A DNA stretch of 64,000 bases from Desulfomonilia bacterium (GCA_050014195.1 JBEKDT010000012.1:32001-96000), one strand, 5' to 3'. Positions 19,157 to 62,265 are shown, counted from the first letter of the stretch. Notes: generated by a model not told the origin, from the letters alone. A program made the numbers and translations.

Positions 19157-19221
19157 TCACCTACCAGTCTCTTCACTGTCATTTCCCCCATGGACACGCT
19201 CCATTGCCGGGTGTACCTGTA

Positions 19222-20722: not shown

Positions 20723-20725
20723 ATC

Positions 20726-23711: not shown

Positions 23712-23725
23712 AAACTTTTCCCTCC

Positions 23726-23968: not shown

Positions 23969-23978
23969 TGAAACCTCC

Positions 23979-38375: not shown

Positions 38376-40118
38376 TCACCGCTGAGCCCACTCGACGGCG
38401 CCGAACTTGGTGTCGCTAAGGTATGTGTAAACGAGGCTGACGGTTCCCGCCGTCTGGTGACTGTCAGGCCGGTCGGGATACTGCGCATTCCGTAGGGAGG
38501 CTAGGTATGTGATCCCGAGGGCGTGATGGCGGTAAATGCGATAGGTGAATCCCATGTTCAGGCGGTCGATGATCTCTCTTCCCCCCGGGTCATCGCTACC
38601 CACACCGGTCAAATAATACGTGCGCCCTGTTAAGTCGAACATGGCCCTGTCACCAAGGATGAGGCGGAGCGCGAGGAGCCCCTGTGGGGCGACGCCGTAG
38701 TGGTAGTCGCGTTCAGCATCTGGGGTGACATTACCGGCCGCAGCGTAACCGAAACCCCCGAGGACCGAGCCCTGGAGCGCTATTGCTCGCGCGAGCCACC
38801 ATTGATAGGTAGTACCGAGAGAGGCCGACGTGCTTGAGACACGGAAGATGTGCGGCGATATATAGTCATAGCCGCCATAGAGGCCCCATATCCCGCAATA
38901 GGAATTGCCGACCTCGTAGTCCGTTCCGAGGAGGAGGCCCCGGATCATGATGTTATCAAAAGGGTTAGCTGTGTTGCCCAGCGTGGAGAATTCAAAATGG
39001 AAGTAGTCGAAAGGACGCGTGTATCTATAGCCGGGCTCCCCGGGGAGCCCGTAGGCCAAGAGGAAGTCCCCGGTCGCCTCGGTCTTGGTATTGGTGCCGG
39101 GGACACCCTGGTCGGTCAGGTGCGAACTCAGACTTGCGCCGAGCCGCAGACGCCAGAGGATGGCCGGATCATGGCTCGGAAAAACGGGCTTGAATCGATC
39201 GCCGAAGGCAAGGCGATTGTAACCCATGGATGGCGAAATCATTGCCGCGCACAGCTCGCGCCAGAACCCGGGTTTGCTGCCATCGCCCTCGAGCACCAGG
39301 CTGGCCATCCGGAAGAGCGCCTCCCCGAAGAAGCTCCCGGCAATGCCGCTGGCGATCATGTCATTGTAGGAGGGTGGTGAGTTCTCCCCGGCCGTTTCCC
39401 AGAGAAGGCTGCCCGCGTTGTCGTAGAGGAGCGCCTCCCAGTAATCGAGGCCCGCCGACCTGGCGAATCCATGGTATATGGATCCCATATACGGATGGTT
39501 GAACTGGTTCATGGCAAAGGCGTCCGTGTCGATCTGCCAGCCCCCGTGGACGACGTGATCGTGGAAGGTTGACCAGTTCGTGCTGTAGGTTTTTTTCCCT
39601 GATAACTCTACAGAGTTAGGGTAAGCGAACCGGTCATACAAGTTGAGGAGAAGTTCGAAGGCCGGGATTTCGAGGGCTGGGATGAGGTAGCTCTTGCCGG
39701 CCCCCGTCTCCCAAGACAAGGTCTGTGTCGTCTCCTCGGGCTTTTCCTCCAACAACCCTTTCCTGCTCATAGAGATATTTACGGTCCGGTTCGTGGTCAT
39801 ATCGGAAAGCTCCATCACCTCCGGAGCCGAAATATTGATATATCCAGGTTTTGATGCCATGAGGGTGTAATTCCCCAGGGCTGGAATACCCACTGAATAG
39901 TTACCCGACGCATCAGTAGTCCCTATTCCTGCCAACGCACCGATATTTGCATCTTTTACCGTGATGATTACCCCTTGAATACCGTGGTTGTTAGAGATAT
40001 CCTTTACGGAACCCGAGATGCCGTCTCCTTGGGCAAAGGCCCAGCTACCAGCAGAGATCCCTCCACCCACAAGGAGCACTGCAAGAATCGCCTTGAATGT
40101 TTTTCTTGCGCCTTTCAT
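38376..40118 (-). CDS. DUF3943-like exported protein with N-terminal carboxypeptidase-regulatory-like domain
   Basis: Signal peptide, ISGSVKD...G.Y..P..GNYTL.AS.PGY; D.FAMNQFNHPYMGS.Y..FARS.G, WE..GE..PS.ND. Confidence 0.75.
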   Translation of the reverse strand: MKGARKTFKAILAVLLVGGGISAGSWAFAQGDGISGSVKDISNNHGIQGVIITVKDANIGALAGIGTTDASGNYSVGIPALGNYTLMASKPGYINISAPEVMELSDMTTNRTVNISMSRKGLLEEKPEETTQTLSWETGAGKSYLIPALEIPAFELLLNLYDRFAYPNSVELSGKKTYSTNWSTFHDHVVHGGWQIDTDAFAMNQFNHPYMGSIYHGFARSAGLDYWEALLYDNAGSLLWETAGENSPPSYNDMIASGIAGSFFGEALFRMASLVLEGDGSKPGFWRELCAAMISPSMGYNRLAFGDRFKPVFPSHDPAILWRLRLGASLSSHLTDQGVPGTNTKTEATGDFLLAYGLPGEPGYRYTRPFDYFHFEFSTLGNTANPFDNIMIRGLLLGTDYEVGNSYCGIWGLYGGYDYISPHIFRVSSTSASLGTTYQWWLARAIALQGSVLGGFGYAAAGNVTPDAERDYHYGVAPQGLLALRLILGDRAMFDLTGRTYYLTGVGSDDPGGREIIDRLNMGFTYRIYRHHALGITYLASLRNAQYPDRPDSHQTAGTVSLVYTYLSDTKFGAVEWAQR

Positions 40119-40232
40119 GGCTTCTCCTTTCTTTCCAATACTCTAAAGTTTTCAAAACAAGGGAGGGTTGTACAAAACCGCTCCCTCAACAGGTATAGGG
40201 GTTTTAGCTTTTCAACTGTTTTTGGCGCATTC

Positions 40233-40595
40233 TCATGGGTGATATCCTTGAGGCAGTGTTGGGACTGTGCTGTCAGCATGTGTCTTAACCTTATAGACAA
40301 CCTTAATTCTTGAAGAGTCCGATTTAACCGCATTACTTTGGACATCGTACTCCTGTTTACTTATCGCTCTGACCCTGTCCATAACTCGAAAATGATTTGT
40401 GTGACTGCAAAATGGGCAGGTAACATCAATTGCAATAAGGTCATGACTCAAGTCGATCCCTTCCTTTTGCAGGTAGGCAATCCCAGTTGAGTAATTGTTG
40501 TGAGAGAGGAAAGACTCAACCGGAATATTTTTATTGCATCCGGGGAATAGACATTTGAAGATGTTGTAGTTGGTAGTCCTCCCTGGATCATACAT
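40233..40595 (-). CDS. Hypothetical protein with possible Zn-ribbon
   Basis: AGGAG RBS; CLFPGC...CPFC. Confidence 0.45.
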   Translation of the reverse strand: MYDPGRTTNYNIFKCLFPGCNKNIPVESFLSHNNYSTGIAYLQKEGIDLSHDLIAIDVTCPFCSHTNHFRVMDRVRAISKQEYDVQSNAVKSDSSRIKVVYKVKTHADSTVPTLPQGYHP

Positions 40596-40764
40596 AATAA
40601 TCTCCTATAGGAGAGTTCTTATTAATCGAATCTTCATTCTCACCTCATTCATAAGAACTCTCAAACACCGACCAGGTTATTGTAACGTCGAATAGTTATC
40701 ATGCTCTGCCCGACAGATCTTATAGATGACAGCCTTTTCATAATGGCATAAACTAATTATCACC

Positions 40765-41442
40765 CTAATTTCTATTCTGATTATCTTCCTGCCCTCTTTC
40801 AGGTTTTCCCTGTTGAGGTTTAGATTGTTGTGGTGCCTTCTGGTGTTGTTGCTGTGAGTGCTGTTGTTGGACCTTTAAGGATTGTGGCCGCGATTGTTGT
40901 TGTCTGGCTGACTTTTGAAATTGCGGTTTTGCCTGGGATCTTGGTTGGACCGCTTGAGACGGCTGTTGTGATCGCGTTCGGGGCTTCAAACCTTGGACAC
41001 CCCAGGTATTTTGCTTTTCCCAATGTCTGCTCTGTTCCCAGGTGCTCCAGTTTTGTTGGACTTGTTGGTGAGGTATTCGCTGGTAGTTCCATGGATGTCC
41101 TCCCCAACGATGATCTCGGTAGTCATTCCTCCAACCTGACGGTACCCTTCCATAAAAGGATGGGACCCTTTGATAGTAGGCCCAACCTGAGTCATAGTTC
41201 CGTGAGCGATACCAACGCCCTTCCCACGGACGCCACCACCAACCATGGTAGAAAAAGATGTCCACATCTACGTCAGGGACAGCATAGACATCAGTCTCAG
41301 GTATCACTACCATCTCTGGAGGTGTGGCAAATACGATGGGTGGAAGAGAAATGCTAATACCTACATTTACCCCGGCCATCGCTGGAGTAGGAAATACAAG
41401 TACCAGCGCCAAAAGTATTGTTCCAAGAAGCAACTTTTTCAT
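40765..41442 (-). CDS. Secreted Trp/Pro-rich protein with Gln-rich low-complexity tail
   Basis: Signal peptide, PP..F..PP.MVVIP, FFYHGWWWRPWEGRWY, Q-rich C-terminus. Confidence 0.75.
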   Translation of the reverse strand: MKKLLLGTILLALVLVFPTPAMAGVNVGISISLPPIVFATPPEMVVIPETDVYAVPDVDVDIFFYHGWWWRPWEGRWYRSRNYDSGWAYYQRVPSFYGRVPSGWRNDYRDHRWGGHPWNYQRIPHQQVQQNWSTWEQSRHWEKQNTWGVQGLKPRTRSQQPSQAVQPRSQAKPQFQKSARQQQSRPQSLKVQQQHSQQQHQKAPQQSKPQQGKPERGQEDNQNRN

Positions 41443-41511: not shown

Positions 41512-41670
41512 TGTAAGAGCAAATGGCCTGCCAATAGCCGATGGGAAATCATAAGTTTCGAATCATCCTTTAACAACAGCTGGTTAGATGAATAGGAGAG
41601 AACAGTAGAAAAGTATGAAATGATTCGTTTGGCCTCAATATTTGGTGGAACCTCAACATATTGAGGGATA
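41512..41670 (-). promoter_or_regulatory. Sigma54 promoter/enhancer cassette, copy 1
   Basis: -24/-12 TGGCAGGCCATTTGC (41533-41519); palindrome CCTCAA-CATA-TTGAGG 41651-41666 with an imperfect tandem site at 41633. Confidence 0.85.
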
Positions 41671-42031: not shown

Positions 42032-42787
42032 CTACTCGATGGTCATCCGGTTATTTACACCCTTCACACCGTTTACGTCGTTAGCGAGTTTGGTGGCCAG
42101 GTCCAATTCGGCTGCGTTGCTGGCCTTTCCATACAATGTGACCACGCCACGTTTCGTCTCGACCTTGGTATTGAGGGCACTGGTCGAGCGGTGATAGAGC
42201 AATGTCATCTTGACCTGGGCGGTGATGGAAGCGTCATCAATTTTTTCGCCTACCGTTCGCGTCTTTTTCGAGGTTTCTGTCACGGTCATCTCATTATTTA
42301 CGTCTTTAACCCCTTCGACACCCTTGGCGTATTCAGTCGTCAATTCCTTTTGTGCCTGACTGGCAGCATCGCCTCGCAGGGTCACCATGCCGTCTTTGAC
42401 GTCAACCTCGGTTGTGACGGCGCTCACGCTACGATGAAACAAGAGTGCGACTTTCACTTTATCACGGAGCCATGCATCCGAGTTTGCGGTGGAGGGCTCG
42501 CCTTTGATTTCCAGTTTGTTGTCCACGCTCTTGACCCCGGGCAGACCCGCCATGGTCTCCTGGGCCAAAGATTTGTGGGATTCTTCGGAGACAGTTCCCG
42601 TTAAGGTAACAACGCCATCCATGGACTGGATCTTAATATCATCGTCCTTGAGATAGGTCTTGAACACATACGACTGCTTTGCGGTTGATTCGATGCGGCT
42701 GTCCATATTCGACGCTTGCACAGGCATGCTGAGTGCCAGCAGAGCCACCGCTGCCACCATGAGAGATAGAGAATATATTGCTTTCAT
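42032..42787 (-). CDS. BON-domain (OsmY-like) periplasmic protein, three BON domains
   Basis: Signal peptide; repeated G.VTL.G...A..V.GVK.V.N; IDDASITAQVK. Confidence 0.9.
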   Translation of the reverse strand: MKAIYSLSLMVAAVALLALSMPVQASNMDSRIESTAKQSYVFKTYLKDDDIKIQSMDGVVTLTGTVSEESHKSLAQETMAGLPGVKSVDNKLEIKGEPSTANSDAWLRDKVKVALLFHRSVSAVTTEVDVKDGMVTLRGDAASQAQKELTTEYAKGVEGVKDVNNEMTVTETSKKTRTVGEKIDDASITAQVKMTLLYHRSTSALNTKVETKRGVVTLYGKASNAAELDLATKLANDVNGVKGVNNRMTIE

Positions 42788-42935
42788 AGCATGTTCTCCT
42801 TGTATTTTTGTTACTGTTAATTTTTGACCCCTTTTACTTCGAAGACCTCATGCCTTTCGGAGTCCTCGTTGCGGTGTATCATGCAACTGCAGCCGTGGGC
42901 ACAAGGACACGCAGGTGCATGATACGCCGCTCTCA

Positions 42936-43115
42936 CTAGTTCCCCAAAACCTTCTTGACCTGACCGATCTTTTCCTGAACTTTGCCGGCTATCTTTTCAC
43001 CGGTACCTTCAGCTTCCAACTTTGGGTTATCGCTCAAGTCCCCGGTGAACTCCTTGAGCTTACCCTTTACTTGGTGATACATGCCTTCCGCCTGGTCCTT
43101 CGTGCTGGATTTCAA
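42936..43115 (-). CDS. csbD: CsbD family stress protein (59 aa, TTG start; absent from the ORF track)
   Basis: Manual translation MKSSTKDQAEGMYHQVKGKLKEFTGDLSDNPKLEAEGTGEKIAGKVQEKIGQVKKVLGN; AGGAGG RBS. Confidence 0.88.
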   Translation of the reverse strand: MKSSTKDQAEGMYHQVKGKLKEFTGDLSDNPKLEAEGTGEKIAGKVQEKIGQVKKVLGN

Positions 43116-43131
43116 GGTATTCCTCCTTTGC

Positions 43132-43446
43132 CTATTTCACGATCAGATTATTCTTTATGGATTTAACCCCTTTGACGCCCCTTACGATTTCATCCGCTTT
43201 ATCGACGGCCTTTTGAGAATTAACAAAGCCGCTCAGTTGAACGGTGCCCTGGTAAGTTTCGACACTGATCTGAAATGATTTGAGAAAATCATCTGCTGCA
43301 AGCAGAGATTTTATCTTGGTCGTGATGACCGAATCGTCAACGTATTCACCTGTGCTTTCATGTGTGCGTGTCGATGCACAGGCTGTAAAGGCGGCGATCA
43401 GCATAAGTAGCACTAAACAATTGATAACGATATTTCTCTTTTTCAT
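43132..43446 (-). CDS. BON-domain lipoprotein
   Basis: Lipobox FTAC, STGEYVDDSVITTKIK, ISVETYQGTVQLSGFV. Confidence 0.9.
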   Translation of the reverse strand: MKKRNIVINCLVLLMLIAAFTACASTRTHESTGEYVDDSVITTKIKSLLAADDFLKSFQISVETYQGTVQLSGFVNSQKAVDKADEIVRGVKGVKSIKNNLIVK

Positions 43447-43553
43447 AGCGATTACTCCTCTTTGTAAATTTAGTTGTGAAATGGTTCACTACGAGACCCT
43501 TTCTCCTGACATTCACTTTTTTTAAAATACCTCCTATATCCTTTTCTGATGTT

Positions 43554-43778
43554 TTATTTTTTGGATTCACGACCAATGAAGACCAACACAATTCCGCCCG
43601 CAAGCGCAACGCCGCCCAGAATGGGTGACAACGGAATGGTCTTTTCCGTCTCTTGGGTAGCTTGGATGGGGCCAATATCAATGATCTTCTCACGGCTTGT
43701 GTATGTTATGCCCTTGTAGGCAAAAGCCACTACCCCGAAAGCGATTAAAACAATACCTATAATCATTACCGGTTTCAT
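43554..43778 (-). CDS. Small membrane protein (DUF3185-like)
   Basis: Two TM segments, YTSREKIIDIGPIQAT..EKTIPLSP. Confidence 0.75.
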   Translation of the reverse strand: MKPVMIIGIVLIAFGVVAFAYKGITYTSREKIIDIGPIQATQETEKTIPLSPILGGVALAGGIVLVFIGRESKK

Positions 43779-43821
43779 AAGAATTGAGCTCCTTTATGAG
43801 CAGAGTTACGAGTCCAAATTG

Positions 43822-43971
43822 CTAAAAGGGTCTTCGTCCCTGAATGACCCTTATCAGTACTACAATGATGGCGATGACCAGCAGGATATGAATGAACCCA
43901 CCCATCGTATAGCCGGAGATAAATCCCAGAAGCCACAGAATTAAGAGAATCACACATATGGTCCAAAGCAT
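43822..43971 (-). CDS. lmo0937-family small membrane protein (49 aa; absent from the ORF track)
   Basis: Manual translation MLWTICVILLILWLLGFISGYTMGGFIHILLVIAIIVVLIRVIQGRRPF; AAGGAG RBS. Confidence 0.85.
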   Translation of the reverse strand: MLWTICVILLILWLLGFISGYTMGGFIHILLVIAIIVVLIRVIQGRRPF

Positions 43972-44015
43972 GTTCGACTCCTTTCTGAGTACAGAATACG
44001 TCCATCGAAGTTTAA

Positions 44016-44321
44016 TTAAATCTCCTCCATCCCCGCCGGATGGAAAACGTTGTAGAACGTCCTTTTATAGGGCTCTTTGAGAAGGTTCATCGCCCCCCGG
44101 AGCACCCTAAAATGCTCCGACTTCAGGTGGGTCATGAGATTCTCTTGGGTATCCCATTCTTCAAGGAGAAAGAGTCGATTTTCATCATCGATACTCTGGC
44201 AGAAGTCACAGCGCCGGCATCCCTTCTCCATCCTTGTGGAACGGGTCAGTGAAGTGATCGCCTGTGACAACTCCATGCGCTTCTCAGAAAGGACCTTCAT
44301 TCGTATGATTACCATGATCAT
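44016..44321 (-). CDS. Antibiotic biosynthesis monooxygenase (ABM) family protein
   Basis: TRMEKGC, DENRLFLLEEWDTQENLMTHLKSEHF. Confidence 0.85.
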   Translation of the reverse strand: MIMVIIRMKVLSEKRMELSQAITSLTRSTRMEKGCRRCDFCQSIDDENRLFLLEEWDTQENLMTHLKSEHFRVLRGAMNLLKEPYKRTFYNVFHPAGMEEI

Positions 44322-44326: not shown

Positions 44327-44484
44327 TGTAAGAGCAAATGGCCTGCCAATAGCTCAAGGAAGATTAGAAGTTTGGATTCATATATTATTAAAAGGGGTTA
44401 GATGAATAGAAGAAATAAGCAGAAAAGTATGAAATGATTTGTTTAGCCTCAAGATATGGTGGAACCTCAACATTTTGAGGGATA
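44327..44484 (-). promoter_or_regulatory. Sigma54 promoter/enhancer cassette, copy 2
   Basis: TGGCAGGCCATTTGC (44348-44334); CCTCAA-CATT-TTGAGG 44465-44480 with tandem site at 44447. Confidence 0.85.
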
Positions 44485-44831: not shown

Positions 44832-45746
44832 CTACTGCATGGGTGTGGGTGCTTCGCGTTCGATGATGATCTCGACGCGGCGGTTATTTGCGCGACCTTC
44901 GGGGCTGGCGTTATCAGCGATTGGGTGTCCCTTGCCAAGCCCATGGGACTTGATGCGATCGGCTGGGTAACCTCGCTGTACGAGATAGTTGCGAACTTCG
45001 TCCGCCCGACGTTGCGACAGGTCGAGGTTGTAGCTCTCCGAGCCCTGTGAGTCTGTGTGTCCTTCGATGATGAGGTTGCGCTCACGGGTTGTGAGCAGTA
45101 CGTCGCTTACCTGGTCGAGTCGCGACCGCGCCTCGGGCAACAATATTGCCTTGTCGGATGCGAAAAGAACACTCCCGGAGAGTGTGATGACTATTCCGCG
45201 GGGCTCTTCCTTGACTGCGGCCAGCTTGGCCAGCGCCGCCTCCGCATCAGCCGCTCGTTGCTCGGCATCGGTCCGCGCCTTTTGTTCAGTGGAAAGCTGC
45301 TCTGCCGTTTTTTCGCCGCTGATCTCCGACGCCGCAAGCGCCTTCTGTGTATCGCTCAAGTCTTGCTTCGTCTTCGTAACAATCTTGCCCTGCGTCGTTT
45401 GATAATCTTTACTCGATTGAGTTTGGCTCTTTTTCTCGATAGCGATGGAGGCAGTAGCTTCAGCTAACTCTGCCTTGCGCTGGGCGACGTAGGCGAGGTC
45501 TCGCGTATGATACGAGTCGGGATCCTTTAGGAAAGATTGTTCCGCCACGTCGAGGGCTTGTTTCGCCACATGCAACTCCGCCGGAGCGGCCTCGGCCGCA
45601 ATCCCAGTGCTTGCACGCTGGTATGCTTCACGGGCGTTGACGAGCTCATTCGGTACGGTGGCCGCACAGCCGGCGAAGAGCGTGACGACCGTGATGAGGA
45701 TCAATAATTGTATCATTTTCATAAAATGCTCCTTTCTTTGGGTCAT
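44832..45746 (-). CDS. OmpA family lipoprotein with DUF4398/coiled-coil N-terminus
   Basis: Lipobox FAGC, IEGHTDSQG, NLDLSQRRA, GRANNRRVEI; the true start may be 45722. Confidence 0.9.
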   Translation of the reverse strand: MTQRKEHFMKMIQLLILITVVTLFAGCAATVPNELVNAREAYQRASTGIAAEAAPAELHVAKQALDVAEQSFLKDPDSYHTRDLAYVAQRKAELAEATASIAIEKKSQTQSSKDYQTTQGKIVTKTKQDLSDTQKALAASEISGEKTAEQLSTEQKARTDAEQRAADAEAALAKLAAVKEEPRGIVITLSGSVLFASDKAILLPEARSRLDQVSDVLLTTRERNLIIEGHTDSQGSESYNLDLSQRRADEVRNYLVQRGYPADRIKSHGLGKGHPIADNASPEGRANNRRVEIIIEREAPTPMQ

Positions 45747-46108
45747 GGGTTGTCTTGCCGGAGTTTACGCACACGCTCCAATGCTGCCTGGGCCTCCGAT
45801 TTTTGGGCATCCTCGCGGGAGAGAGCGACAGCCAGCTCGGCGTCGGCTTCGGACCGCAACAGCATAGACGCGGCCTCGTCCTTTTCGCCTTTTGCGGACA
45901 GCCCCTTGGCGAGTTCCAGTTCTTCCTTGGCCATTTGCAAATGAAGCGAGGCTTGCGGTACTCCTGCCGCCCCGACCTCCTCGGCAGCGCGGATACCCGA
46001 CGTAGACGCCTCTGTACGCAGCGGGGTGTTTGCGCATCCCATTGTGATTGCGGTGGCCACTATGGCCACTGCGAACATCATAATTCCGATCTTGAATACG
46101 TATCTCAT
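45743..46108 (-). CDS. DUF4398 family lipoprotein
   Basis: Lipobox TMGC, IRAAEEVGA..PQASLHLQ.A, RSEADAELA.AL. Confidence 0.82.
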   Translation of the reverse strand: MRYVFKIGIMMFAVAIVATAITMGCANTPLRTEASTSGIRAAEEVGAAGVPQASLHLQMAKEELELAKGLSAKGEKDEAASMLLRSEADAELAVALSREDAQKSEAQAALERVRKLRQDNP

Positions 46109-46241
46109 TGAATTCTCCTTTAGCTACAGATCTTCACTCATCCGAACTCAGTTGTTACGGTTTGAGTCGATAGTGATGTCTTCAAAAAAATGCTTCTTTG
46201 TTAGCCGAATTCATAATGATTTTTCGTGCACTAAACTCACT

Positions 46242-46394
46242 TCAGATCCGGCCCATCAGCAGCAGGATGATCAAAATCAGAACAATCAATCCAAGTCCAC
46301 CACTGGGATAGTATCCCCAACTCTTACTGTGAGGCCAGGTAGGCAGTGCGCCGACTAAGATGAGAATCAAAATAACTAGTAGTATTGTACCCAT
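46242..46394 (-). CDS. DUF3309 family small membrane protein
   Basis: LPTWPHSKSWGYYPSGGLG signature. Confidence 0.9.
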   Translation of the reverse strand: MGTILLVILILILVGALPTWPHSKSWGYYPSGGLGLIVLILIILLLMGRI

Positions 46395-46529: not shown

Positions 46530-46688
46530 TGTAAGAGCAAATGGCTTGCCAATAGCCGATGGAAAATCATAAGTTTCGAATCATCTTTTAACAACAGCCG
46601 GTTAGATGAATAGGAGGGAACAGCAGAAAAGAATGAAATGATTCGTTTGGCCTCACTATTTGGTGGAACCTCAATATATTGAGGGATA
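46530..46688 (-). promoter_or_regulatory. Sigma54 promoter/enhancer cassette, copy 3
   Basis: TGGCAAGCCATTTGC (46551-46537); CCTCAA-TATA-TTGAGG 46669-46684 with tandem site at 46651. Confidence 0.85.
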
Positions 46689-46709: not shown

Positions 46710-48689
46710 CTAATCCGCTTCTTTTGTCTCCGACCGGACTATGCCGAGCTTATGCATCCTCGCTCTTAAGGTACTCGGGTGGATGCCCAAGATCGCTGCG
46801 GCCCCGTCCTTTCCCTCGATGCGCCATCGGGCTTCAGAAAGGATTTTGAGAATTTGGTTTCGCTCCGTCTCTTCCAATGTCCTCACGACGGATGAAAGTT
46901 GGGGGGATGAAATCTCCAGTTTATCTGCCAGTTGTAAAACCGACCCGGGGCATAAGATCACGGCCCGTTCAATGATGCTTTCAAGCTCCCGGACGTTCCC
47001 AGGCCACGGGTAATCCTGCAGCGCCTTCATCGTCTCCTTGTGAATCGACATAATCTGTTTGCCCAATTTCCTGGAATACCTTTCTATGAAGGCCTGGACC
47101 ATCATAGGGATGTCATCTTTGCGCTGCCGTAGTGGTGGGACAGTGATGGGGAAGACGTTGAGCCGATAGTAAAGGTCCTGCCGAAACCGGCCCTTGCGGA
47201 CCTCTTCCTCAAGGTCTCGATTGGTCGTCGCAACGATCCGTACATCGACTTTCATGGTATGGGACGAGCCCAGGCGCTCAAACTCGTTATGCTGAATCAC
47301 CCGGAGTAGCTTTGCCTGCACCTCCAGCGGTAGCTCCCCGATCTCGTCCAGGCAAAGGGTGGAACCATGGGCGACCTCGAACCGACCGACCTGCCGGGTA
47401 TCGGCCCCGGTAAATGCCCCCTTCTCCCGGCCGAACAATTCGCTCTCAATTAAATTGCCCGGCAGGGCAGCACAGTTGACCGTAATCAAGAGCCGTTCCT
47501 TACGGGGACTCATGTCATGGATGGCGAAAGCGATCAGCTCCTTCCCCGTACCGGTCTCACCAAGGATGAGGACCGTTGTGTTCGTGGGCGCAACTTGTTC
47601 CGCTCGATAGAGAACATACTTGAGACCATCACTTTGCCCGAGAATATGCTCAAATCGATGTTTCATTTTGTTCTCGTGACGGAAGTAAATATTCTCGGCC
47701 TCCAGTTGGTCTTTCATTGTTTTGATTTCAGAAAGAGCCGTCCGAAGTTCGACAGCTTGTCGTTCCAGTTCGTTGTGAGATTTTTTTAAAGCCTCTGCTA
47801 TAAGTTTCCGTTCAGTGGTGTCGCGGATGTTACACTGAATCACTTTATAATTATTAACAAGATAGACATTACTGACAAATTCCACGGCAATTGGCCGTCC
47901 CTCTTTCGTCTCCAATGGTAAATCATGGTAGCGAACATATCCCTTGCTCTTCAATTCCGAAGAGGTGGCTTTCGATGCTTCAATATCTCTAAAGGTGCCA
48001 ATTTCCCAGAGTTTCTTCCCTAAGAGCTCCTCATGTGAATAACCCAACATTTCTAACAAGAATGGGTTAACATCCACTATTTGTCCTGTCTCGGCATCGA
48101 GGATTAATATTCCATCTTGGGATGCTTCAAAGAGACGGCGGTAGCGAGTTTCAGAAATCTTTAGCGCCTCCTCCATCTTCTTGCGCTCGGTGATGTCCAC
48201 CATTACGGCGCACACCGCACCGAGCATATCCGTGCGCTGAAGGGGACTTACGGAAAATAAGACAGGTACAGAATTTCCACCTCCGCCCTGTAAGGCCAGT
48301 TCCCCTTCACTGTTCCCCTTTAAACCCCGCTCAACCAATGCCTCAAATAATTGAAGGTCTGTTGATGAAATGTATTGGTAGATTGAAGATCCTATTACTT
48401 TTTCCAGAGACCCTTTGACGATATCTGCAAAACGTTGGTTACAGTAAAGGATCGTACCGTCGGAGGCCAGGGTGATGGCCCCTTCGTTCATGGTTTCGAC
48501 CATGACCCTGTAAGGATGCTCGGCACCCGATAGGGTAAATACCCGATCTCCTTCCGCCGTTGAGACAACCAGACCATCCACCCCACCGCCTCGGATAGCG
48601 CGCAGAGTTTCCTCAGCTTCCATCATCCGCGATGTGAGTTCCTGCAACTCATCCAGAAGTTGCTGGCGTGTTCTATCCGATTTGTTCAT
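46710..48689 (-). CDS. Sigma54-dependent enhancer-binding protein with two PAS domains (no receiver domain)
   Basis: Coiled-coil N-terminus, two PAS domains, [37 protein letters not shown], Fis-type HTH. Confidence 0.95.
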
Positions 48690-48699
48690 TGATTCGCAC

Positions 48700-49044
48700 T
48701 CATGAAATTTTGGGTTTCAGATCGATGCCTACAAGAAACCTTTCCGTATCCGACATGTCGCCGATGAGCTTCCGGAGTGGCAGAGGGAGTTTCTTGATGA
48801 GCGTTGGGGTGGCAATAATCTGCTCTCCCTTGGCCAGCTTGGGCTGCTGGTAGATGTCTATCACCTCGAGTTCGTAGTAGCCTTTCAGGTATTTTTTACA
48901 GAGTGTCTGGACATTGGCGATTGCCTGGGTTGACTTTGGGGTCATCCCTGTAACATACAGCCGAAGAACGTACTTTGCCCGGGCCCGCTTCGCTGTCGCT
49001 TTCTCGAATTCCTCAGTGCTCGTTTTCACTCTTTTCCTCTCCAT
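48700..49044 (-). CDS. kaiB: KaiB family protein
   Basis: [50 protein letters not shown]. Confidence 0.93.
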
Positions 49045-49069
49045 GTCTGTTACTCCAAAATTGATTTTA

Positions 49070-49402
49070 TCATCCGGAGACAGAACGAATGTCGAGTCCC
49101 ACCAGCACGCGCTCTGTGTTAGCCAGATCTCCGATAATCTTTTTAAGCGGTTCAGGGAGCTTCCTTACCAGTGTCGGTATGGCAATAATCTGGTCCCCTT
49201 TAGCAAGATGGGGATTCTTTAAAAGATCGATCACTTCAATGCGATATTTCCCCGCGAGGTGCTCTTCACAGATCTTCTTTAAATTGGCAAAGGCCGTAAT
49301 CGATTTCTGGGTCTGACCGGCTACATATAACCGGAGGTTCCAGATACTTTCCGTCGAATCGGTCTTTGCCTTCTTCCCCTTTCCTGGTGAGACAGCTTTC
49401 AC
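49070..49402 (-). CDS. kaiB: KaiB family protein
   Basis: [47 protein letters not shown]. Confidence 0.94.
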
Positions 49403-51153
49403 CTTACTCTCCTTTCCCTCTTCTTTTTCGCGCGCAACACCTGCGGAGCAGAAGGTTTTCCCTTGCGAAGATGCGCCATTTCTAAACGGTCTTTGGCCAG
49501 AACAGCTTGTCTTTTCTGCTCTTCTTCCGCCATCAAATGCACCTCTTCAGTTTCCACATCGAACTCGGCACGCAGCGCTGCGATCTTTGCTTCCAGGGCC
49601 TTCCTCTTGCGCTCCTGCTCGCGGAGCCTGCGATCGGCCTCAAGATGGCATGCCAGCGAAGAGGCCTTTTCCCCGGCTTTCTGGACTGCACGGGCACTGC
49701 CGGTTAATACCTCGCCGGAACCGGTATAGATGTCGATGAGGTCAATGCCCTGGTTCGTGAGCAGGAACTCTTGAATCTGGTTGGAGTGGGCCATGCCGCG
49801 GGACTTCAAGATGTAGAGGCCCCGGTTGCGTTCCCCATTGAGTTCGATATCCCTCAGGAGAAGCCACGTATCGATCAGAGAAGATATCTCTTCGCTTGTG
49901 TGTTCAAGGCTGCCTCCAAAATGAGTGAGGTCCGTAAGGAAAGTGGAGATCTTTTTCATCTTTAAATGGTCGATCAGGCGCGTTAATATGGATTTGACCT
50001 CTGATTCTGTTCCCGCGGCGCTCAGGTTGCTGATCGGGTCTACAATGAAAACCTGGGGATTGAACTCATCGATCACCTTGTGGAAGGTGACAAGATGCAT
50101 CTCAAGGCCGTAAAGCGAAGGCCGGGCCGAATGAAACTTGAGAAGCCCCCTCTTCACCCACCGGGCGAGATCCATGCCGATGGAGCCCATGTTCCGGATG
50201 ATCTGGCTGGGCGATTCCTCGAAGGCAAAATACAGGCAGCGCTCACCTCGCCGGCAGGCGGCGTCGGCAAAGGTACCCGACATACTTGTTTTGCCTGTGC
50301 CCGCCGTACCGGAGACGAGGATGGTGCTGCCCCGGTAGAATCCCTTTCCATCGAGCATTGCATCCAACTTGGGGACGCCCGTGGAGATGCGCTCCGTGGA
50401 AACGGGGTAGTCGAGCCCCAGGGAAGTTATCGGCAGGAGAGAGAGGCCGCTCTCGTCTATCAGGAAGGGATACTCGTCGGCGCCGTGAGATGAGCCTCGG
50501 TACTTGACAATACGCAGACGGCGGGTGGAAATTTGCTCCTCGATGCGGAAATCGAGAAGGATCACGCAATCGGCCACGTATTCTTCGAGCCCGTAGCGTG
50601 TCAGGGTCTTGTCGCCGCTTTCCCCCGTAACGATGGCCGTCACACCGCGGTCTTTCAACCAGTGAAAAAGCCGGCGAAGCTCTGCCCGGAGAATAGCGGT
50701 ATCAGACAGTCCGGAGAAAAGTGCTTCTATGGTATCTAAGACAACCCGCTTGGCCCCGATGGAATCAATGGCATTCCCCAGGCGGATGAACAATCCTTCC
50801 AGGTCGTACTCACCCGTCTCCTCAATCTCGCTTCGATCGATGTAGACGTGGTCCATTGCGATGAGACCACGCGACATCATGTCGTGGAGATCAAAACCTA
50901 GCGAGATGAAGTTCTTCGCGAGATCCTCCGGCGTCTCCTCGAAGATCATGAAGACCCCTGGTTCTCCATGATCCAGGGCGCCCCGCATGAGAAACTCCAT
51001 GGCGAAAAGTGTTTTGCCGCAACCCGCACTGCCGCAGATCAGGGTTGGCCTGCCTCGCGGAAGCCCTCCCTTCGTGATCTCATCGAGACCCTTAATGCCC
51101 GTCGGGCATTTTTCAAGAACATCAACATCATGTTTTGCCTTAACCATTATCAT
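49399..51153 (-). CDS. kaiC: KaiC (double RecA/ATPase domain) with C-terminal coiled coil
   Basis: Walker A GSAGCGKT and [10 protein letters not shown] motifs, ISSLIDTW phospho-site region, KSRGMAHS. Confidence 0.95.
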
Positions 51154-51401
51154 CTCCCAGGATCTTGACTAATCAGAAGCAAAAACTACAAAAGTAAAAT
51201 ACTATTAAAGCCAGTCAGTCAAATTAGATACCAATAAAAACGCATTAAATCATAATAATAAACACCCCCCTGCCTTTCAAGGGGGGAAGGTGAAGTGGAT
51301 GATGTCATTATATTATTGCGCTTGAAGTAAGTCATTAAAAATCCATATGATGCTCCTATGATGTAAAAGCTCAAAAAATGCAAAACTGAGGAATAACAAC
51401 C

Positions 51402-52164: not shown

Positions 52165-53628
52165 CTACAAGTACGGCGTCAGCAATCGCGCAATGCCATC
52201 GCGCAGGCGAGCGGGCAGTGAGCGGCCATCGACCTCCTCCAACGTCACAAGACGGGCGCCATTCCGTTTCGTCTCGACCCACTGATCAAGCCGCTGGGCA
52301 AGTTCAACGTCGTAACATTCTAAGTTGAATTCAAAGTTGAGGCGCAAACTTCGGGGATCCCAGTTGGCCGACCCCAGTAGCACCCAGCATCCATCCACCA
52401 GCATGAGTTTGGAGTGATCGAATGGAGGCGGAGTCAGCCATACCCGGCATCCATGCTGGAGCACTTGCCACCATATCGCCCGGGAGGCCCACAGGACGAA
52501 GGGCAGATTGATCCGTGCGGGCAAAATGATATCAACCTGTACACCCCGCATTGCTGCCAGATTCAGGGCGGAGATCACGGCAGGGTCGGGCAGAAAATAG
52601 GGAGTCATGATCCGAACGGAATGGCGGGCAATCGACAGCGCTCCCAACAGCGTCCAAAGAAGTTTTTCGAAATTCTCATCCGGGCCATCGGTTACGCCTC
52701 GCGCCAACACCTGCCCCGCGCTTTCGGTTTGTGGAAACCACAAATCACCACGCAAAGATTCGCCGGTTGTGAAAAGCCAATCATCGGTGAATACTTCTTG
52801 CAGTTGGGTCACCACAGGGCCCTTCACTCGGAAATGGATGTCCTGAACCGGGTTTTTCGGTTGGGCTTGAAGGCAGTGTCCCACTCGAATATTCATGCCG
52901 CCGGTAAACCCCACGCGCCCATCTACCACCAGGATCTTCCGGTGTGTGCGCATGTTGATCGACATCAGATGCCACAAAGCTAAAGGCGGGAGAAACCGTG
53001 CATGCTTCACCCCCTCCCGTTGCAGCGTGTGGAGAATGGTGGGCCAGGAATACCGGGCCCCCGTCGCGTCAATCAACACTCGCACTTCCACGCCCCGGCG
53101 CGCGGCCTCACCAAGCGCATGCGCAAAGACCATCCCGACTTCGTCCCGATCAAAGATATAGGTCACGAAAGAGACTGTCTGCCGTGCGTGCCCAATCGCC
53201 TCAAGCATGGCCGGATAGGCTTCATCTCCGTCCACCAACGGATCGATCCGATTGCCCGGCAGCAAGGGTCGCTCCACCACACCCCCCACTACCCGAGCCA
53301 GCATCTTGAGATACCCTCCGTGATCCGGCAGATGGCGCTGCAACTCTTCCGGCAGACATTCGGGTTGTGCGGCTTGTGCCCGGTACCGCTCCAGGTTTCT
53401 TCGCAACAGAGCGGCCTTATAGCGAATGCGATTCACTCCGAAGATGAAGTACATGACAGCCCCGATGAGGGGTACGAGCCAAACGAAGCCCACCCACGCG
53501 ATGGCGGAGCGCGAATCGCGCTTGTTGAGAACCACGTGTCCAGTCGCATACACAGAGAGAAGCAACCCGAGTCCGATGGCAGCGATGTGCCAGACGTCGT
53601 GCACCAGATTACCAACAGTCATTGTCAT
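52165..53628 (-). CDS. cls: Cardiolipin synthase (PLD family)
   Basis: Two N-terminal TMs; HKD motifs HRKILVVD and HSKLMLVD; GSANWD.RSL.LNFE. Confidence 0.9.
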   Translation of the reverse strand: MTMTVGNLVHDVWHIAAIGLGLLLSVYATGHVVLNKRDSRSAIAWVGFVWLVPLIGAVMYFIFGVNRIRYKAALLRRNLERYRAQAAQPECLPEELQRHLPDHGGYLKMLARVVGGVVERPLLPGNRIDPLVDGDEAYPAMLEAIGHARQTVSFVTYIFDRDEVGMVFAHALGEAARRGVEVRVLIDATGARYSWPTILHTLQREGVKHARFLPPLALWHLMSINMRTHRKILVVDGRVGFTGGMNIRVGHCLQAQPKNPVQDIHFRVKGPVVTQLQEVFTDDWLFTTGESLRGDLWFPQTESAGQVLARGVTDGPDENFEKLLWTLLGALSIARHSVRIMTPYFLPDPAVISALNLAAMRGVQVDIILPARINLPFVLWASRAIWWQVLQHGCRVWLTPPPFDHSKLMLVDGCWVLLGSANWDPRSLRLNFEFNLECYDVELAQRLDQWVETKRNGARLVTLEEVDGRSLPARLRDGIARLLTPYL

Positions 53629-54435: not shown

Positions 54436-55617
54436 ATGGATAATACGATACCAAGATCACAGGCAAACGACTATTCAAAGGATATCATTGAAGAACGCCG
54501 GCGGTTTCTCCGGGAAAAGACCGGCATAGAACTGAACCATGTGAATAAGTATTCCTTTGATCCTGCCATGCTGCCCGGAAATATAGAACATTTTATTGGG
54601 GTAGCCCAGGTTCCCATAGGGATCACCGGTCCGCTGCTCGTGAACGGAGAATACGCCCAGGGTGAATTCTATGTCCCTCTGGCAACAAGTGAAGGAACCC
54701 TTGTCGCAAGCTATAACAGGGGGATGAAAATAATAAGACAATGCGGGGGTGTGACCACAACGATCCAGGAAGAAGCAATGCAGCGCGCCCCTGTCTTCAT
54801 ATTTGATAATGCCCGCCAGGCCCGTGATTTCGGGATCTGGCTGAAGGAACAATTTGAGGAAATTAAAAAACAGGCTGAAAGCACCACAAGGACCGGAAAG
54901 CTTATCACCATTGAGCAGTACCATGCCGGTCGATTCGTGTACACCCGGTTTGATTATACAACCGGCGACGCTGCAGGTCAGAACATGACGGGAAAAGCAA
55001 CCTTCATTGCATGCGAGTGGATCAGGAAAACCCATCCTTATGTAAAAAGGTACATGATAGACGGGAATTTCTCTACGGACAAAAAGCATTCGACCATCAA
55101 TGTACTGAAGACCAGAGGCAAACGTGTTACCGCCGAAATCACAATCCCCGAAAAGATCGTCAGGGAGCAGATGAACCAGTCTCCGGCAAGATTGCAGTTC
55201 TATCACAATATCGGAAACCTCGGGTCCTATTTCTCCGGCGCTGTGAACAACGGGAGTCACTCTGCCAATGGGATCACCGCCATTTTCATTGCAACGGGGC
55301 AGGACGCGGCAAACGTCGCAGAGGGCTCGGCGGCGATAACCTATAGCGAGAGGACAAAGGAAGGCGACTACTACTTCTCAGTGGTGATCCCCGCACTGAT
55401 TGTGGCCACTCACGGAGGAGGAACCGGGCTTGCGACCCAAAGAGAATGCCTCGAGTTGATGGATTGCTACGGAACCGGAAAAGTAAAGAAGTTCGCCGAG
55501 ATTGTCGCCGCAGCCGTCCTTGCGGGAGAGCTTTCATTGATGAGCGCAATGAGGGTGAATAAGGATGGCACCAGCGACTGGATTTCGAGCCACGATAAAT
55601 TGGGGAGAAACAGATAA
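54436..55617 (+). CDS. Hydroxymethylglutaryl-CoA reductase family protein
   Basis: IEHFIG, PLATSEGTLVASYNRG, TGDAAGQNM, DKK, ATGQDAA, GGGT, AGELSL, C-terminal His. Confidence 0.9.
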   Translation: MDNTIPRSQANDYSKDIIEERRRFLREKTGIELNHVNKYSFDPAMLPGNIEHFIGVAQVPIGITGPLLVNGEYAQGEFYVPLATSEGTLVASYNRGMKIIRQCGGVTTTIQEEAMQRAPVFIFDNARQARDFGIWLKEQFEEIKKQAESTTRTGKLITIEQYHAGRFVYTRFDYTTGDAAGQNMTGKATFIACEWIRKTHPYVKRYMIDGNFSTDKKHSTINVLKTRGKRVTAEITIPEKIVREQMNQSPARLQFYHNIGNLGSYFSGAVNNGSHSANGITAIFIATGQDAANVAEGSAAITYSERTKEGDYYFSVVIPALIVATHGGGTGLATQRECLELMDCYGTGKVKKFAEIVAAAVLAGELSLMSAMRVNKDGTSDWISSHDKLGRNR

Positions 55618-58160: not shown

Positions 58161-60056
58161 TCAGGAGATTCTTGATCTCAGTCTTTTTGCAATGTTCGGA
58201 AAATGGTGAAGGTCGGTATGGGGCAGGAAAAGTGCTGCCGTATACTGATCCATATAGCCTGCCGTAGTGCTCAAATCGATATAGGTCATGCGCTTTGCTA
58301 ACGCCGTTTGTGAGTCTCTGTATTCCTTTGACAGGAGGCATAGGCAGGACCCCAGGAGAGAGGCATTCCCGATGTAAAGGAACTTCTCAACAGGTATATC
58401 GGGGAGCAGTCCGATGACCATGGCGTTACCGAGGTTGAGGAACCGGCCGAATGCACCTGCTATGTAAAACGTGGAAATGTCATGAAAGGATATACCGATC
58501 TGCCTGAGCATCAAAGCCGCAGCAGAATATATGGCTGCCTTGGCGCGCATGAGGTTTTCAATATCGTTTTCAGACAGGATGATCGGTTTGCCGCTGTTCG
58601 TATCTGCGGCTTCGGCAACGGTATAGGAGGCACGACGGCCATTGAGGTGAATCAAGGGGCTTGTCCTGCTCCTGTTGAGCTTGCCTGACGAATCGATCCA
58701 ACCGGAGAGAAAAAGCCCGGCAACAAGGTCTATCAGTCCGGACCCGCAGATGCCCGAAGGCCTGCCGTTGCCGATGGTCGTATATCGGGCGCTGCCCGTA
58801 TCCCCCTCAATCGTGACAGAGTCAATGGCTCCCGTAGTGGCGCGCATGCCGCAATCAATACCTCCGCCTTCAAAGGCCGGTCCTGCCGAACAGGCACAAG
58901 TCATGAGGAAATCGGAATTGCCGAGAACGATCTCACCGTTCGTGCCGATATCGATGAAAAGGCAGGTCTCTTCCTTGTTTTTCACAAGATCAGTGGCGAG
59001 AATACCGGCGGTAATATCTCCCCCCACGTAACTGCCAACACAGGGGGAGAAGGTAACGAGGGCTTCTGGGTGAATGTCCAGGCCCGTTTCAATGGCCCGG
59101 AAATGGGGAATTTGCAGCACGGTCGGCGTGTAGGGCTCCAGCCGCAGGTATTCGGGCTTGAGCCCGAGAAAGAGATGCGTCATGATCGTATTGCCCGATA
59201 TGCGGCAGCAGGTTATATCCTCTTTCAGAGTATAGGAATCATCAACAACCTCTTGAACGAGACGGTTCACGGATCGTACGGCCCTCGACCGCAAGTCCTC
59301 CAGCCTCTCCCGGGTGGATGCATAATTGATCCTGCTTATGACATCGAGCCCGCAATGGATCTGGTCATTATATCCGTTCCTGGTTGATATTACCTTTCCG
59401 CTGCCCAGATCGATCAGTTGCACGGAAATGGTGGTTGTCCCCAGATCGATTGCAATCCCCAGGTTTTTGCGCTCGGCCCGAGAGCCCTTTATATCAATGA
59501 TATGGGTCTTGCCGCTGTCAGCAGCAAGGGTGATAGTCACCATGCCGTCTTCCGCACGAAGGGCATCCGCCGATTTTTGGATAACGGATAAAGGGTAGAA
59601 TATCTCTTTTTCCTGGATCACGGATTTAAGACTGCGGCCAACCCGGTCGAGATCCGACAGGCCGTCTTCTTTCTCTGCCTTGGGGACACGCAGGCATACC
59701 TGCTGTGAGCAAGGGGAGAGGTGTAACAGTGCAGGCACGGTTTCGCAGACGGGGTTAATGCTGTCATCGAGGACCATGCAGGCCGGCTGTTCAGGGATGT
59801 TGACAATAACGTCTTCAATGATGAAGGATTGGCAGGCTACTACAAACCCGGAAGCCCTTTCTTCGTCGGTCAGCTGTATGTCTGATTTACATGCAACAGA
59901 GCCGTGGGTTATCTGGACCAGGCATTTTCCGCAGGTCCCTTTTCCTCCGCAGGGCAGCTCGATCATGATCCCTGCCCGGCCCGCGGCATCCATGAGCAAG
60001 GTGCTGGAAGGGACGTCTATGGTTTTTCCTATGGGAAGAAAGGTGATTATCGGCAT
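58161..60056 (-). CDS. ASKHA-domain reductive activator of corrinoid proteins (RACo, AcsV/DUF4445 type)
   Basis: CGGKGTCGKC, DLGTTT, GLDVISRI, DIGTNGE, CSAGPAFEG, GICGSG, AALFLPHTD; start taken at MPIITF. Confidence 0.92.
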   Translation of the reverse strand: MPIITFLPIGKTIDVPSSTLLMDAAGRAGIMIELPCGGKGTCGKCLVQITHGSVACKSDIQLTDEERASGFVVACQSFIIEDVIVNIPEQPACMVLDDSINPVCETVPALLHLSPCSQQVCLRVPKAEKEDGLSDLDRVGRSLKSVIQEKEIFYPLSVIQKSADALRAEDGMVTITLAADSGKTHIIDIKGSRAERKNLGIAIDLGTTTISVQLIDLGSGKVISTRNGYNDQIHCGLDVISRINYASTRERLEDLRSRAVRSVNRLVQEVVDDSYTLKEDITCCRISGNTIMTHLFLGLKPEYLRLEPYTPTVLQIPHFRAIETGLDIHPEALVTFSPCVGSYVGGDITAGILATDLVKNKEETCLFIDIGTNGEIVLGNSDFLMTCACSAGPAFEGGGIDCGMRATTGAIDSVTIEGDTGSARYTTIGNGRPSGICGSGLIDLVAGLFLSGWIDSSGKLNRSRTSPLIHLNGRRASYTVAEAADTNSGKPIILSENDIENLMRAKAAIYSAAALMLRQIGISFHDISTFYIAGAFGRFLNLGNAMVIGLLPDIPVEKFLYIGNASLLGSCLCLLSKEYRDSQTALAKRMTYIDLSTTAGYMDQYTAALFLPHTDLHHFPNIAKRLRSRIS

Positions 60057-60085
60057 ATGAATTTTAGTCTTATCTTTAACTGGAT

Positions 60086-60128
60086 CCCTCACCCTGACCC
60101 TCTCCCCATAATCATATGGGGAGAGAGG
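60086..60128. repeat. BoxC-like intergenic palindromic repeat
   Basis: CCCTCACCCTGACCCTCTCCCCATA-ATCA-TATGGGGAGAGAGG. Confidence 0.65.
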
Positions 60129-62107: not shown

Positions 62108-62111
62108 ATTC

Positions 62112-62265
62112 CTACACTTTCTCCTTTTCCTCTCCACTGAAAGGGATCTTGAGTTCGTAGACAGCGGATTCCAAGTGAGTTTCTATGGGGTGTCCTGTCT
62201 TTGAGAACACCTTCATCATGGGGGTATTTCGTGCCAGGACATCTGCCGTGAATCCTTTAATCTCG
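62112..62265 (-). pseudogene. C-terminal fragment of a GNAT-domain protein
   Basis: IKGFTADVLARNTPMMKVFSKTG resembles the GNAT C-terminus; 5' part replaced by a palindromic element. Confidence 0.55.

Follow-up and report, generated by a model that had tools for sequence, protein, structure and literature searches.

The coupling of a sigma-54 transcriptional activator to a KaiA-less Kai timer is well supported by comparative genomics in the stretch of DNA analysed here, 64,000 nucleotides of a Desulfomonilia bacterium (GCA_050014195.1 JBEKDT010000012.1:32001-96000; hereafter the window, from whose first letter positions are counted). On its minus strand, kaiC, two kaiB genes and a gene for an enhancer-binding protein form a tight co-directional unit with spacings of -4, 25 and 10 bp (Table 1); the gene order, the 4-bp overlap and the two gaps reported in the initial annotation, which was made from the sequence, agree exactly with the gene calls. 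The activator begins with an N-terminal module that is shared by proteins encoded after kaiB in other phyla, and, judged by its domains, the kinase part of such a Kai-linked protein is replaced here by a sigma-54 AAA+ domain. The reading leaned towards in this work is that of a Kai hourglass with the enhancer-binding protein as its output in place of a PAS histidine kinase, in which the timer would gate the AAA+ domain and probably switches a set of stress genes directly.

Seventy-eight loci with KaiC relatives were fetched and mapped by tblastn, 37 of them close and 41 distant. The close group, with KaiC 84-94% identical and records named Smithella, Syntrophaceae, Desulfobacterales and others, retains the next open reading frame (ORF) in 35 of its 37 loci; the gene after kaiB encodes a sigma-54 activator in 27 of these 35 and a HisKA_3 kinase with the same module in two, and is cut by the contig end in six, three of which show the beginning of an AAA+ domain. 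The distant group (KaiC 45-68% identical; next ORF available in 36 of 41 loci) comprises Acidobacteriota, Bacteroidota, Verrucomicrobiota, Planctomycetota, Chloroflexota, Fibrobacterota, one cyanobacterium and archaea, and the post-kaiB gene there encodes a histidine kinase, often hybrid, in 34 of the 36, a Crp-type regulator in one and a protein without a family in another. Residues 1 to ~180 of the activator match the post-kaiB protein in 30 of these 36 distant loci, at 31-48% identity.

The specificity of the module is apparent from two censuses. Within the order, 52 genomes were searched with a profile built from an alignment of 60 N-termini, and the result was bimodal: 15 full-length module matches (149-269 bits, from profile position 2) occurred in 13 genomes, every one of them 46-103 bp from a kaiB match, and the other matches listed, above 232 lower-ranked ones, reached at most 70 bits and covered PAS positions ~50-173 only, save for a few earlier starts. 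KaiB was found in 14 of the 52 genomes, the fourteenth having a lone kaiB2-like gene only. Lone kaiB2-like genes, 77-78% identical to kaiB2 and with neither kaiC nor module nearby, were observed at L103 (G037:C9) and L104 (G034:C5:4994-5332), the latter with LPG-synthase-C, HMG-CoA reductase and aconitase-family genes among its neighbours. The phylum sample, 401 genomes drawn evenly and searched at a module threshold of E 1e-25, gave 31 module matches in 29 genomes. For 26 of these matches kaiB is no more than 600 bp away, and for 23 of the 26 no more than 100 bp; one further match sits at the start of a contig, its kaiB pair being located on a different one. The association of the module with Kai is very strong, if not absolute, and the survey of kai-activator synteny that had been proposed as a check on the linkage shows it to be conserved and specific, the activator following in most close loci and the module standing nearly always beside kaiB.

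By Pfam, the activator comprises two PAS domains (residues 60-170 and 182-293), Sigma54_activat (PF00158, E 3e-70; 349-515), AAA_lid_14 (521-589) and a helix-turn-helix (HTH) domain, HTH_8 (604-647), with the motifs of an enhancer-binding AAA+ protein: Walker A GETGTGK at 377-383, GAFTGA at 424-429 (within the stretch 415-429) and LDEI at 447-450. The same search gave no Response_reg match, and hence no NtrC-type receiver, and no HisKA/HATPase_c transmitter, the place of which is taken by Sigma54_activat, the lid and HTH_8. In an AlphaFold 2 (AF2) model, the module folds into a helix (8-33), a beta-hairpin (39-52) and a PAS domain (57-177), with a mean pLDDT of 84.3. A SasA-like docking domain was considered for the activator and ruled out, there being no KaiB-like (thioredoxin-like) domain by Pfam and a helix-hairpin-PAS fold in the AF2 model. 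Whatever their output domain, the 60 aligned N-termini share a signature that ends in ...G..V.TL..A..PYR...E.MNEGA, and I32, D38 and N84 are invariant among them. Residues 1-58 have no paralogue in the activator's own genome, in which the first PAS domain finds weak paralogues only (33% or less) and the second, a generic one, 35 matches; nor did residues 1-58 find a clear structural analogue by profile search or Foldseek. Against the solved structures, the sequence profile of the module matched PAS cores only, from ~position 54-59 on, the nearest being haem sensors (DosP, 1.5e-11), and Foldseek returned the generic PAS domains of PpsR, an HTR-like PAS, DosP, FixL and NifL (the NifL-NifA complex 9QQ6 included).

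Output domains, assigned by tblastn and Pfam, differ from one module protein to another. The 27 Kai-adjacent or contig-start copies of the phylum sample carry 18 kinases (HisKA, HisKA_2 or HisKA_3), six sigma-54 activators, one PAS-GAF-HD protein of 882 amino acids (aa; L119, G074:C58), one GerE/LuxR HTH regulator of 334 aa (L120, G133:C3) and one PAS-only protein of 198 aa. Within the window's own order, the activator type occurs in three genomes only (G000, G034 and G024), and ten genomes have a second Kai lineage (KaiC 43-62% identical, tblastn) with a kinase after kaiB, a receiver-bearing hybrid wherever the gene is complete. Searched against 5.8 billion proteins, residues 1-178 gave 1724 matches at E 1e-10 or better, the best 120 of which comprise 114 Sigma54_activat proteins and six HisKA_3 proteins with modules 80-85% identical. 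Eighty-three modules were placed in a quick maximum-likelihood tree, where a single clade (SH-aLRT 97) takes in 35 of the 36 activator rows and also eight HisKA_3 rows at no fewer than three places; the divergent activator L032 lies outside this clade, and supported branches force at least three changes of the activator label. Because the tree was midpoint-rooted and several distant rows sit on long branches, no direction of output change is drawn from it. The straightforward interpretation is that repeated swaps of output domain have taken place behind a constant Kai-linked input.

All Kai-adjacent copies examined but one bear an output domain (kinase, activator, GerE or HD), so that these module proteins resemble output proteins, and no other conserved candidate output gene was found in the loci. 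Both observations speak against the unlikely alternative that the module is an input, whereby its PAS domain would sense redox, oxygen or a small ligand and tune KaiC via KaiB binding, the AAA+ domain would answer the PAS signal, and the output of the Kai proteins would lie elsewhere. The alternative draws on the haem sensors named above as the nearest solved PAS domains; on KidA, the PAS domains of which bind fold-switched KaiB and alter the oscillator rather than read it out (PMC9478674); and on the suggestion that a kaiBC-operon kinase is a candidate carrier of a redox signal to KaiBC (PMC5520375). Input and output roles of the module are not mutually exclusive.

As far as can be judged from sequence, the KaiC-KaiB-KaiB set of the window is of the KaiA-less hourglass type of Rhodobacter sphaeroides. 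KaiC matches PF06745 in two stretches (E 5e-109, Pfam), with Walker A motifs GSAGCGKT (41-48) and GTAGTGKT (282-289) and the catalytic Glu-Glu of FEE at 71-73 and 311-313, and its residues 14-553 align with 8DBA, the R. sphaeroides KaiC that has a coiled coil (E 1e-192). The C-terminal extension that marks this class, a stretch of some 50 residues whose coiled coil links one hexamer to another, is included in the alignment to residue 553; the coiled-coil tail of the initial annotation is therefore upheld as an extension, its coiled coil being read from the alignment. The Ser-Ser phospho-site likewise claimed proved to be Ser424-Ser425, which are almost invariant across 59 relatives and correspond in the alignment to the serine pair replaced by glutamates in 8FWI, the S413E/S414E phosphomimetic entry. 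The products of kaiB1 and kaiB2 match PF07689 at 95.4 and 91.6 bits (cut-off 27, Pfam) and both find KaiB of R. sphaeroides (8FWJ_M) as their best match in the PDB, at 105.9 and 94.2 bits; by synteny, kaiB1 is the copy retained in single-kaiB loci. The window copies are the sole double-domain kaiC and the sole two kaiB genes of a genome of 29 contigs rated 100% complete, in which KaiA (PF07688) was not found by a search that detected the control in S. elongatus. None of the 60 non-overlapping window ORFs of at least 90 aa matched HisKA, HATPase_c or Response_reg by Pfam, so the window is indeed without kaiA, kinase or receiver, as first described.

The R. sphaeroides KaiBC system autophosphorylates independently of KaiA, its timer is reset by the ratio of ATP to ADP, and KaiC is an autokinase and ATPase (PMC10076222), from which it might be supposed that KaiC acts enzymatically on the activator, by phosphorylation or ATP competition, and not via KaiB docking. 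Such an action is considered highly improbable, given that one or two kaiB genes stand strictly between kaiC and the module gene, an order that points to KaiB as the adaptor. To our knowledge, KaiC has not been described as handing phosphate on to any other protein.

No terminator-like site was found in the gap between kaiB2 and the activator gene. All four genes are covered by contigs, 90-99% alike, that come from four metatranscriptome runs, each belonging to a different study, and an RNA-library contig bridges the kaiB2/activator junction in three of the four runs; these contigs, which make up small shares (at most 0.11) and come from relatives, give presence and bridging, not strand, ends or level, with uncovered stretches carrying no meaning, and they are compatible with expression and co-transcription in those relatives.

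The putative targets of the activator lie next to it. Three downstream repeats of about 180-190 bp, 86% identical to one another, constitute three promoter cassettes, P1 to P3, the first of which begins ~25 bp past the activator stop codon, and the three adjacent promoters of the initial annotation are thus real. Each cassette holds a 16-bp palindrome, CCTCAAnATnTTGAGG (six matches on two strands against 0.13 expected), with a second half-site 2 bp beyond, and a sigma-54 -24/-12 element, TGGCA(A/G)GCCATTTGC (TGGCA-N6-TTGC), with 133-134 nt from the palindrome start to the -24 TGG in all three. As the strict sigma-54 consensus TGGCAC-N5-TTGC gave no match and the loose TGG-N9-TGC was not enriched (42 against 44.7 expected), only the repeated 15-mer within the cassettes is taken to be meaningful. 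With HTH_8, the palindromes as predicted binding sites, the -24/-12 element and rpoN, present in one copy (C1:447228-447704), the components expected of an enhancer-binding protein system would all be at hand.

Across the genome, seven copies of the cassette occur on four contigs. The window accounts for three, contig 2 for two and contig 3 for one, and contig 1 has a diverged copy (~70% identical). The genes behind cassettes also include DUF5670 twice, triple-BON twice, CsbD twice, and Ysc84-like, PqiA-like and VIT1 genes. The genes driven by the cassette at C2:390219 encode triple-BON, DUF5670, a PAS hybrid histidine kinase and VIT1, and the strict cassette on contig 3 (C3, ~6283-6475) drives a 325-aa sigma factor of the sigma-70 family, with regions 2 and 4, and after it a Sel1-repeat protein. 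Judged by predicted family, the cassette genes, the two regulators aside, are a general-stress and envelope set; since a hybrid histidine kinase and a sigma factor are driven as well, relays or a cascade may follow. The claim of a circuit closed within about 11 kb did not survive, in view of the seven cassettes on four contigs, the kinase and sigma-factor targets, and a second, paralogous activator. This paralogue, a PAS-PAS sigma-54 activator of 671 aa (C1:29676-31691; L109:677-2689), is 56% identical over residues 70-657 with an HTH 74% identical and a different N-terminus without the Kai module, and its diverged cassette, with the variant palindrome CCATCAACATATCGAGG, lies directly 3' (C1:31714-31896; L109:2690-2910). 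A 37-residue remnant, matching the activator's C-terminal end at 84% identity, was also observed on contig 2 (C2:93016-93126, L107), directly 5' of the cassette at C2:92855; it suggests that cassettes may have spread by duplications carrying the 3' end of the activator gene along.

The cassettes were followed across genomes at loci with a complete ORF and at least 300 bp of flank, allowing up to two mismatches in the palindrome and requiring a sigma-54 element 100-180 nt on. By this pattern, 13 of 23 activator-type loci have a cassette behind the gene, compared with none of 33 kinase-type loci, and the single locus of another type has none either. Of 27 activator-type loci, 19 have homologues of the genes driven by the window's cassettes no more than 8 kb away, as does one of 36 kinase-type loci. 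In three relatives a whole or partial cassette stands 5' of kaiC, with palindrome and sigma-54 element in L029/L090 and L082 and the palindrome only in L013, so that the kai genes of these loci would themselves be targets of the activator. A cassette driving kaiC was ruled out in the window's own genome, where none lies 5' of kaiC and sigma-70-like matches only were found.

That kai genes may be such targets, and that regulators often accrete in stress-gene clusters, would suit a relationship of co-transcription only, with the activator sensing its own signal via its two PAS domains and the kai genes being members or neighbours of the stress regulon. Co-transcription alone is nonetheless thought quite unlikely, as it leaves unexplained why the module follows kaiB in those 30 of 36 distant loci whatever the output domain, why none of the numerous PAS proteins in this genome offers a paralogue of residues 1-58, and why the module is missing from the kai-less paralogous activator; the recurrence of the same module across Acidobacteriota, Bacteroidota, Verrucomicrobiota, Chloroflexota, Planctomycetota, a cyanobacterium and archaea counts against it too.

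For the favoured reading, a Kai hourglass with the activator as output, the following course can be proposed. The ATP-to-ADP ratio would set the phosphorylation and nucleotide state of KaiC, as measured in R. sphaeroides KaiBC, and the state of KaiC would govern the binding of fold-switched KaiB; KaiB or the KaiB-KaiC complex would contact the N-terminal module of the activator, and this contact would release or block the AAA+ domain. The freed activator would assemble on the palindromes and open the sigma-54 promoters of the BON, CsbD, OmpA-like, DUF3309, DUF5670 and related genes, the window activator, not the paralogue, using the six strict cassettes. In a dark-living anaerobe, the unit would not be a day clock but would switch a stress or dormancy regulon with a delay, according to the energy state. 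From gene adjacency, a kaiB2-module pair at locus L014, a set of KaiB-module fusions and, by analogy, the precedent of KidA, we infer that the gating by KaiB/KaiC would be physical. The KaiC/KaiB-controlled activator output put forward in the initial annotation accordingly keeps its conserved, specific linkage and the cassettes beside the activator, but would extend more widely than was supposed, with relays possibly to follow.

At L014, a second kaiB2 and a second module gene, without kaiC, lie 6 kb 3' of the kaiC-kaiB-kaiB-activator unit (L014:16269-17733), and a BON gene and a B12/radical-SAM gene lie between the copies. The fusions are nine predicted proteins in which a KaiB2-like domain is joined N-terminal to the module. 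Many predicted proteins of 200-250 aa (P0121-P0133) have tandem KaiB1-like and KaiB2-like domains, either as a true fusion or as a gene-call merge.

More generally, the module may be a KaiB/KaiC docking domain that passes the state of a KaiA-less timer to whichever effector is fused to it, be it a histidine kinase, a sigma-54 activator, a LuxR-type HTH or an HD-type phosphodiesterase, and that here would offer a relay-free path to sigma-54 stress and dormancy promoters; this wider proposal is put forward tentatively, as a real possibility somewhat short of an even chance.

Several points weigh against the activator being the output of the timer. Adjacency would also fit with the module as a Kai input or with a mere shared promoter, and a literature search found no published demonstration of a contact between Kai proteins and the module. 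Four of the 31 phylum modules, the lowest-scoring ones (139-150 bits), lie away from kaiB in large multi-PAS hybrid kinases, and three of these (G430, G347 and G334) occur in genomes without a KaiB match, so a related domain can exist without Kai. The KaiB-module fusions, each of them one sequence on one contig, may be artefacts of frameshifts or of gene calling; the matches also include a KaiC-KaiB merge of similar kind. As singletons throughout, the fusions lend weak support. Ten of the 23 activator-type loci lack a cassette by the pattern used, four of these misses being ORF-call artefacts in which an exact-pattern scan finds the motifs, and a subclade of 541-544-aa activators is without any cassette. 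The paralogous activator could also use the cassettes, although its own has a variant palindrome. Lastly, a single transcript is not proven by the RNA-library contigs, which are contigs only and may include DNA present in RNA libraries.

The nearest known arrangement is the kaiC-kaiB-PAS/HK operon (HK, histidine kinase) of Rhodopseudomonas palustris and R. sphaeroides, thought to have a single promoter (PMC4794148); PMC5520375 likewise speaks of a kaiBC-operon kinase. Alike are a KaiA-less KaiC2-type kaiC, a kaiB and then a PAS sensor gene, the gene directly after kaiB carrying the shared N-terminal module here. Different are the two kaiB genes and the lack of a kinase transmitter, HisKA/HATPase_c being replaced, on domain prediction, by a sigma-54 AAA+ domain and a Fis-type HTH, whereby the output protein itself would bind DNA. 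The kinases of the two named operons are likened to the activator by description, not by sequence, the sharing of the module being known from the fetched distant loci. With the R. sphaeroides KaiBC hourglass (8DBA, 8FWI, 8FWJ; PMC10076222), the window shares its KaiC, Ser-Ser site, C-terminal extension and KaiBs; the terms 'histidine kinase' and 'operon' each have 0 occurrences in that paper, the consulted text of which does not deal with an output. The dodecamer and the dependence on the ATP/ADP ratio are features of that system, the window proteins being known from sequence alone, and the host here, unlike R. sphaeroides, is a non-phototrophic anaerobe as judged by the names of its relatives. 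KidA of Synechococcus elongatus, in which N-terminal PAS domains bind fold-switched KaiB directly (PMC9478674), is the only experimental precedent for a PAS-KaiB contact found in the literature search; it is a PAS-GGDEF-EAL protein that tunes the period of a KaiABC clock, and its likeness to the module is one of description, not of sequence homology.

The activator has no KaiB-like thioredoxin domain, pseudo-receiver or kinase by Pfam, and would need no response regulator to reach DNA. In this it differs from the outputs of the cyanobacterial clock, where SasA-RpaA and CikA read the Kai state by docking on KaiC or KaiB. The closest functional analogues would be NifL-NifA and PspA-PspF, receiver-free enhancer-binding proteins in which a protein partner, and not phosphorylation, sets the activity of the AAA+ domain; here the proposed partner is a Kai timer, which would dock on a dedicated helix-hairpin-PAS module. 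Output factors of the cyanobacterial clock are listed in PMC5520375, and KaiC is noted only beside phytochrome genes in the available part of a Myxococcus review. No published description of a sigma-54 activator in the post-kaiB position was found in a search outside which subscription-only literature lay. What was known already is the PAS sensor gene after kaiC-kaiB; what would be new is a transcriptional AAA+ output on the same Kai-linked input.

Table 1. Positions and assignments of the Kai unit, the promoter cassettes with their genes, and module-like sequences elsewhere (window coordinates unless a locus is named).
Feature	Position	Strand	Description	Basis
kaiC	49399-51153	minus	584 aa; two RecA-like domains, KaiC2 / R. 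sphaeroides type	Pfam, PDB match, motifs
kaiB1	49070-49402	minus	110 aa; GTG start; 4-bp overlap with kaiC stop	Pfam
kaiB2	48700-49044	minus	114 aa; 25-bp gap after kaiB1	Pfam
Sigma-54 activator (enhancer-binding protein)	46710-48689	minus	659 aa; 10-bp gap after kaiB2	Pfam, motifs
Kai-linked N-terminal module of activator	48156-48689	minus	residues 1-178	alignment, AF2 model, censuses
Two sigma-70-like promoter matches 5' of kaiC	51252-51335	minus		consensus matches only
Cassette P1	46500-46700	minus	palindrome 46669-46685, second half-site, sigma-54 element 46537-46551	
P1 genes	44832-46394	minus	DUF3309 46245-46394, DUF4398 45743-46108, DUF4398-OmpA 44832-45746	Pfam
Cassette P2	44300-44520	minus	palindrome 44465-44481, sigma-54 element 44334-44348	
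P2 genes	42032-44299	minus	ABM, DUF5670 43825-43971, 74-aa membrane ORF	Pfam
P2 genes, further	42032-44299	minus	BON 43132-43446, CsbD 42939-43115, triple-BON 42032-42787	Pfam
Cassette P3	41480-41700	minus	palindrome 41651-41667, sigma-54 element 41519-41533	
P3 first gene	40765-41442	minus	225 aa, hydrophobic N-terminus, putative signal peptide; no Pfam family	by eye (signal peptide), Pfam
P3 further genes	38376-41442 region	minus	120-aa ORF 40233-40595; CarboxypepD_reg-DUF3943 38376-40118; one predicted stretch	
C3 cassette genes	L108:614-1588, 1700-2695		sigma factor, Sel1-repeat protein	
Module-like N-termini not beside kaiB	L136-L139 (G430, G347, G334, G187:C74)		multi-PAS hybrid kinases	139-150 bits

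Elsewhere in the window, genes that flank the kai region have no cassette: a PLD-type cardiolipin-synthase-like gene (52165-53628, minus), an HMG-CoA reductase gene beside an AMP-binding enzyme (54436-55617, plus) and a universal stress protein gene (61676-62137, minus). A corrinoid methyltransferase set occupies 5156-12237 on the plus strand, with two B12-binding, two URO-D/MtaA-like and one homocysteine S-methyltransferase-family gene and one for a RACo activase, another RACo gene being located at 58164-60092 (minus). Two sets of BcrAD/BadFG ATPase genes together with HGD-D genes (2-hydroxyacyl-CoA dehydratase or benzoyl-CoA reductase-like) extend over 14275-25112 on the minus strand, along with a ferredoxin-domain protein, a CbiA/ParA-like ATPase and a CdhC-like fragment.

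A stress role has been reported for KaiC2 of Legionella, as cited in PMC5520375, and the BON, CsbD, OmpA-like, DUF3309, VIT1 and PqiA-like targets fit with it. Which genes non-cyanobacterial KaiBC systems act on, and by what route the state of the timer leaves them, becomes a testable question here, as a candidate path is legible from timer through docking module, AAA+ motor, DNA site and promoter to target genes. The module, found as it is on kinases, a GerE regulator and an HD protein, may serve as a sequence marker for Kai outputs in other genomes. If the proposed gating is correct, it would provide the first defined output for non-cyanobacterial Kai systems, together with a reporter assay that needs one promoter, and an hourglass driven by the ATP-to-ADP ratio would control a sigma-54 regulon in a non-phototrophic anaerobe that is never in daylight.

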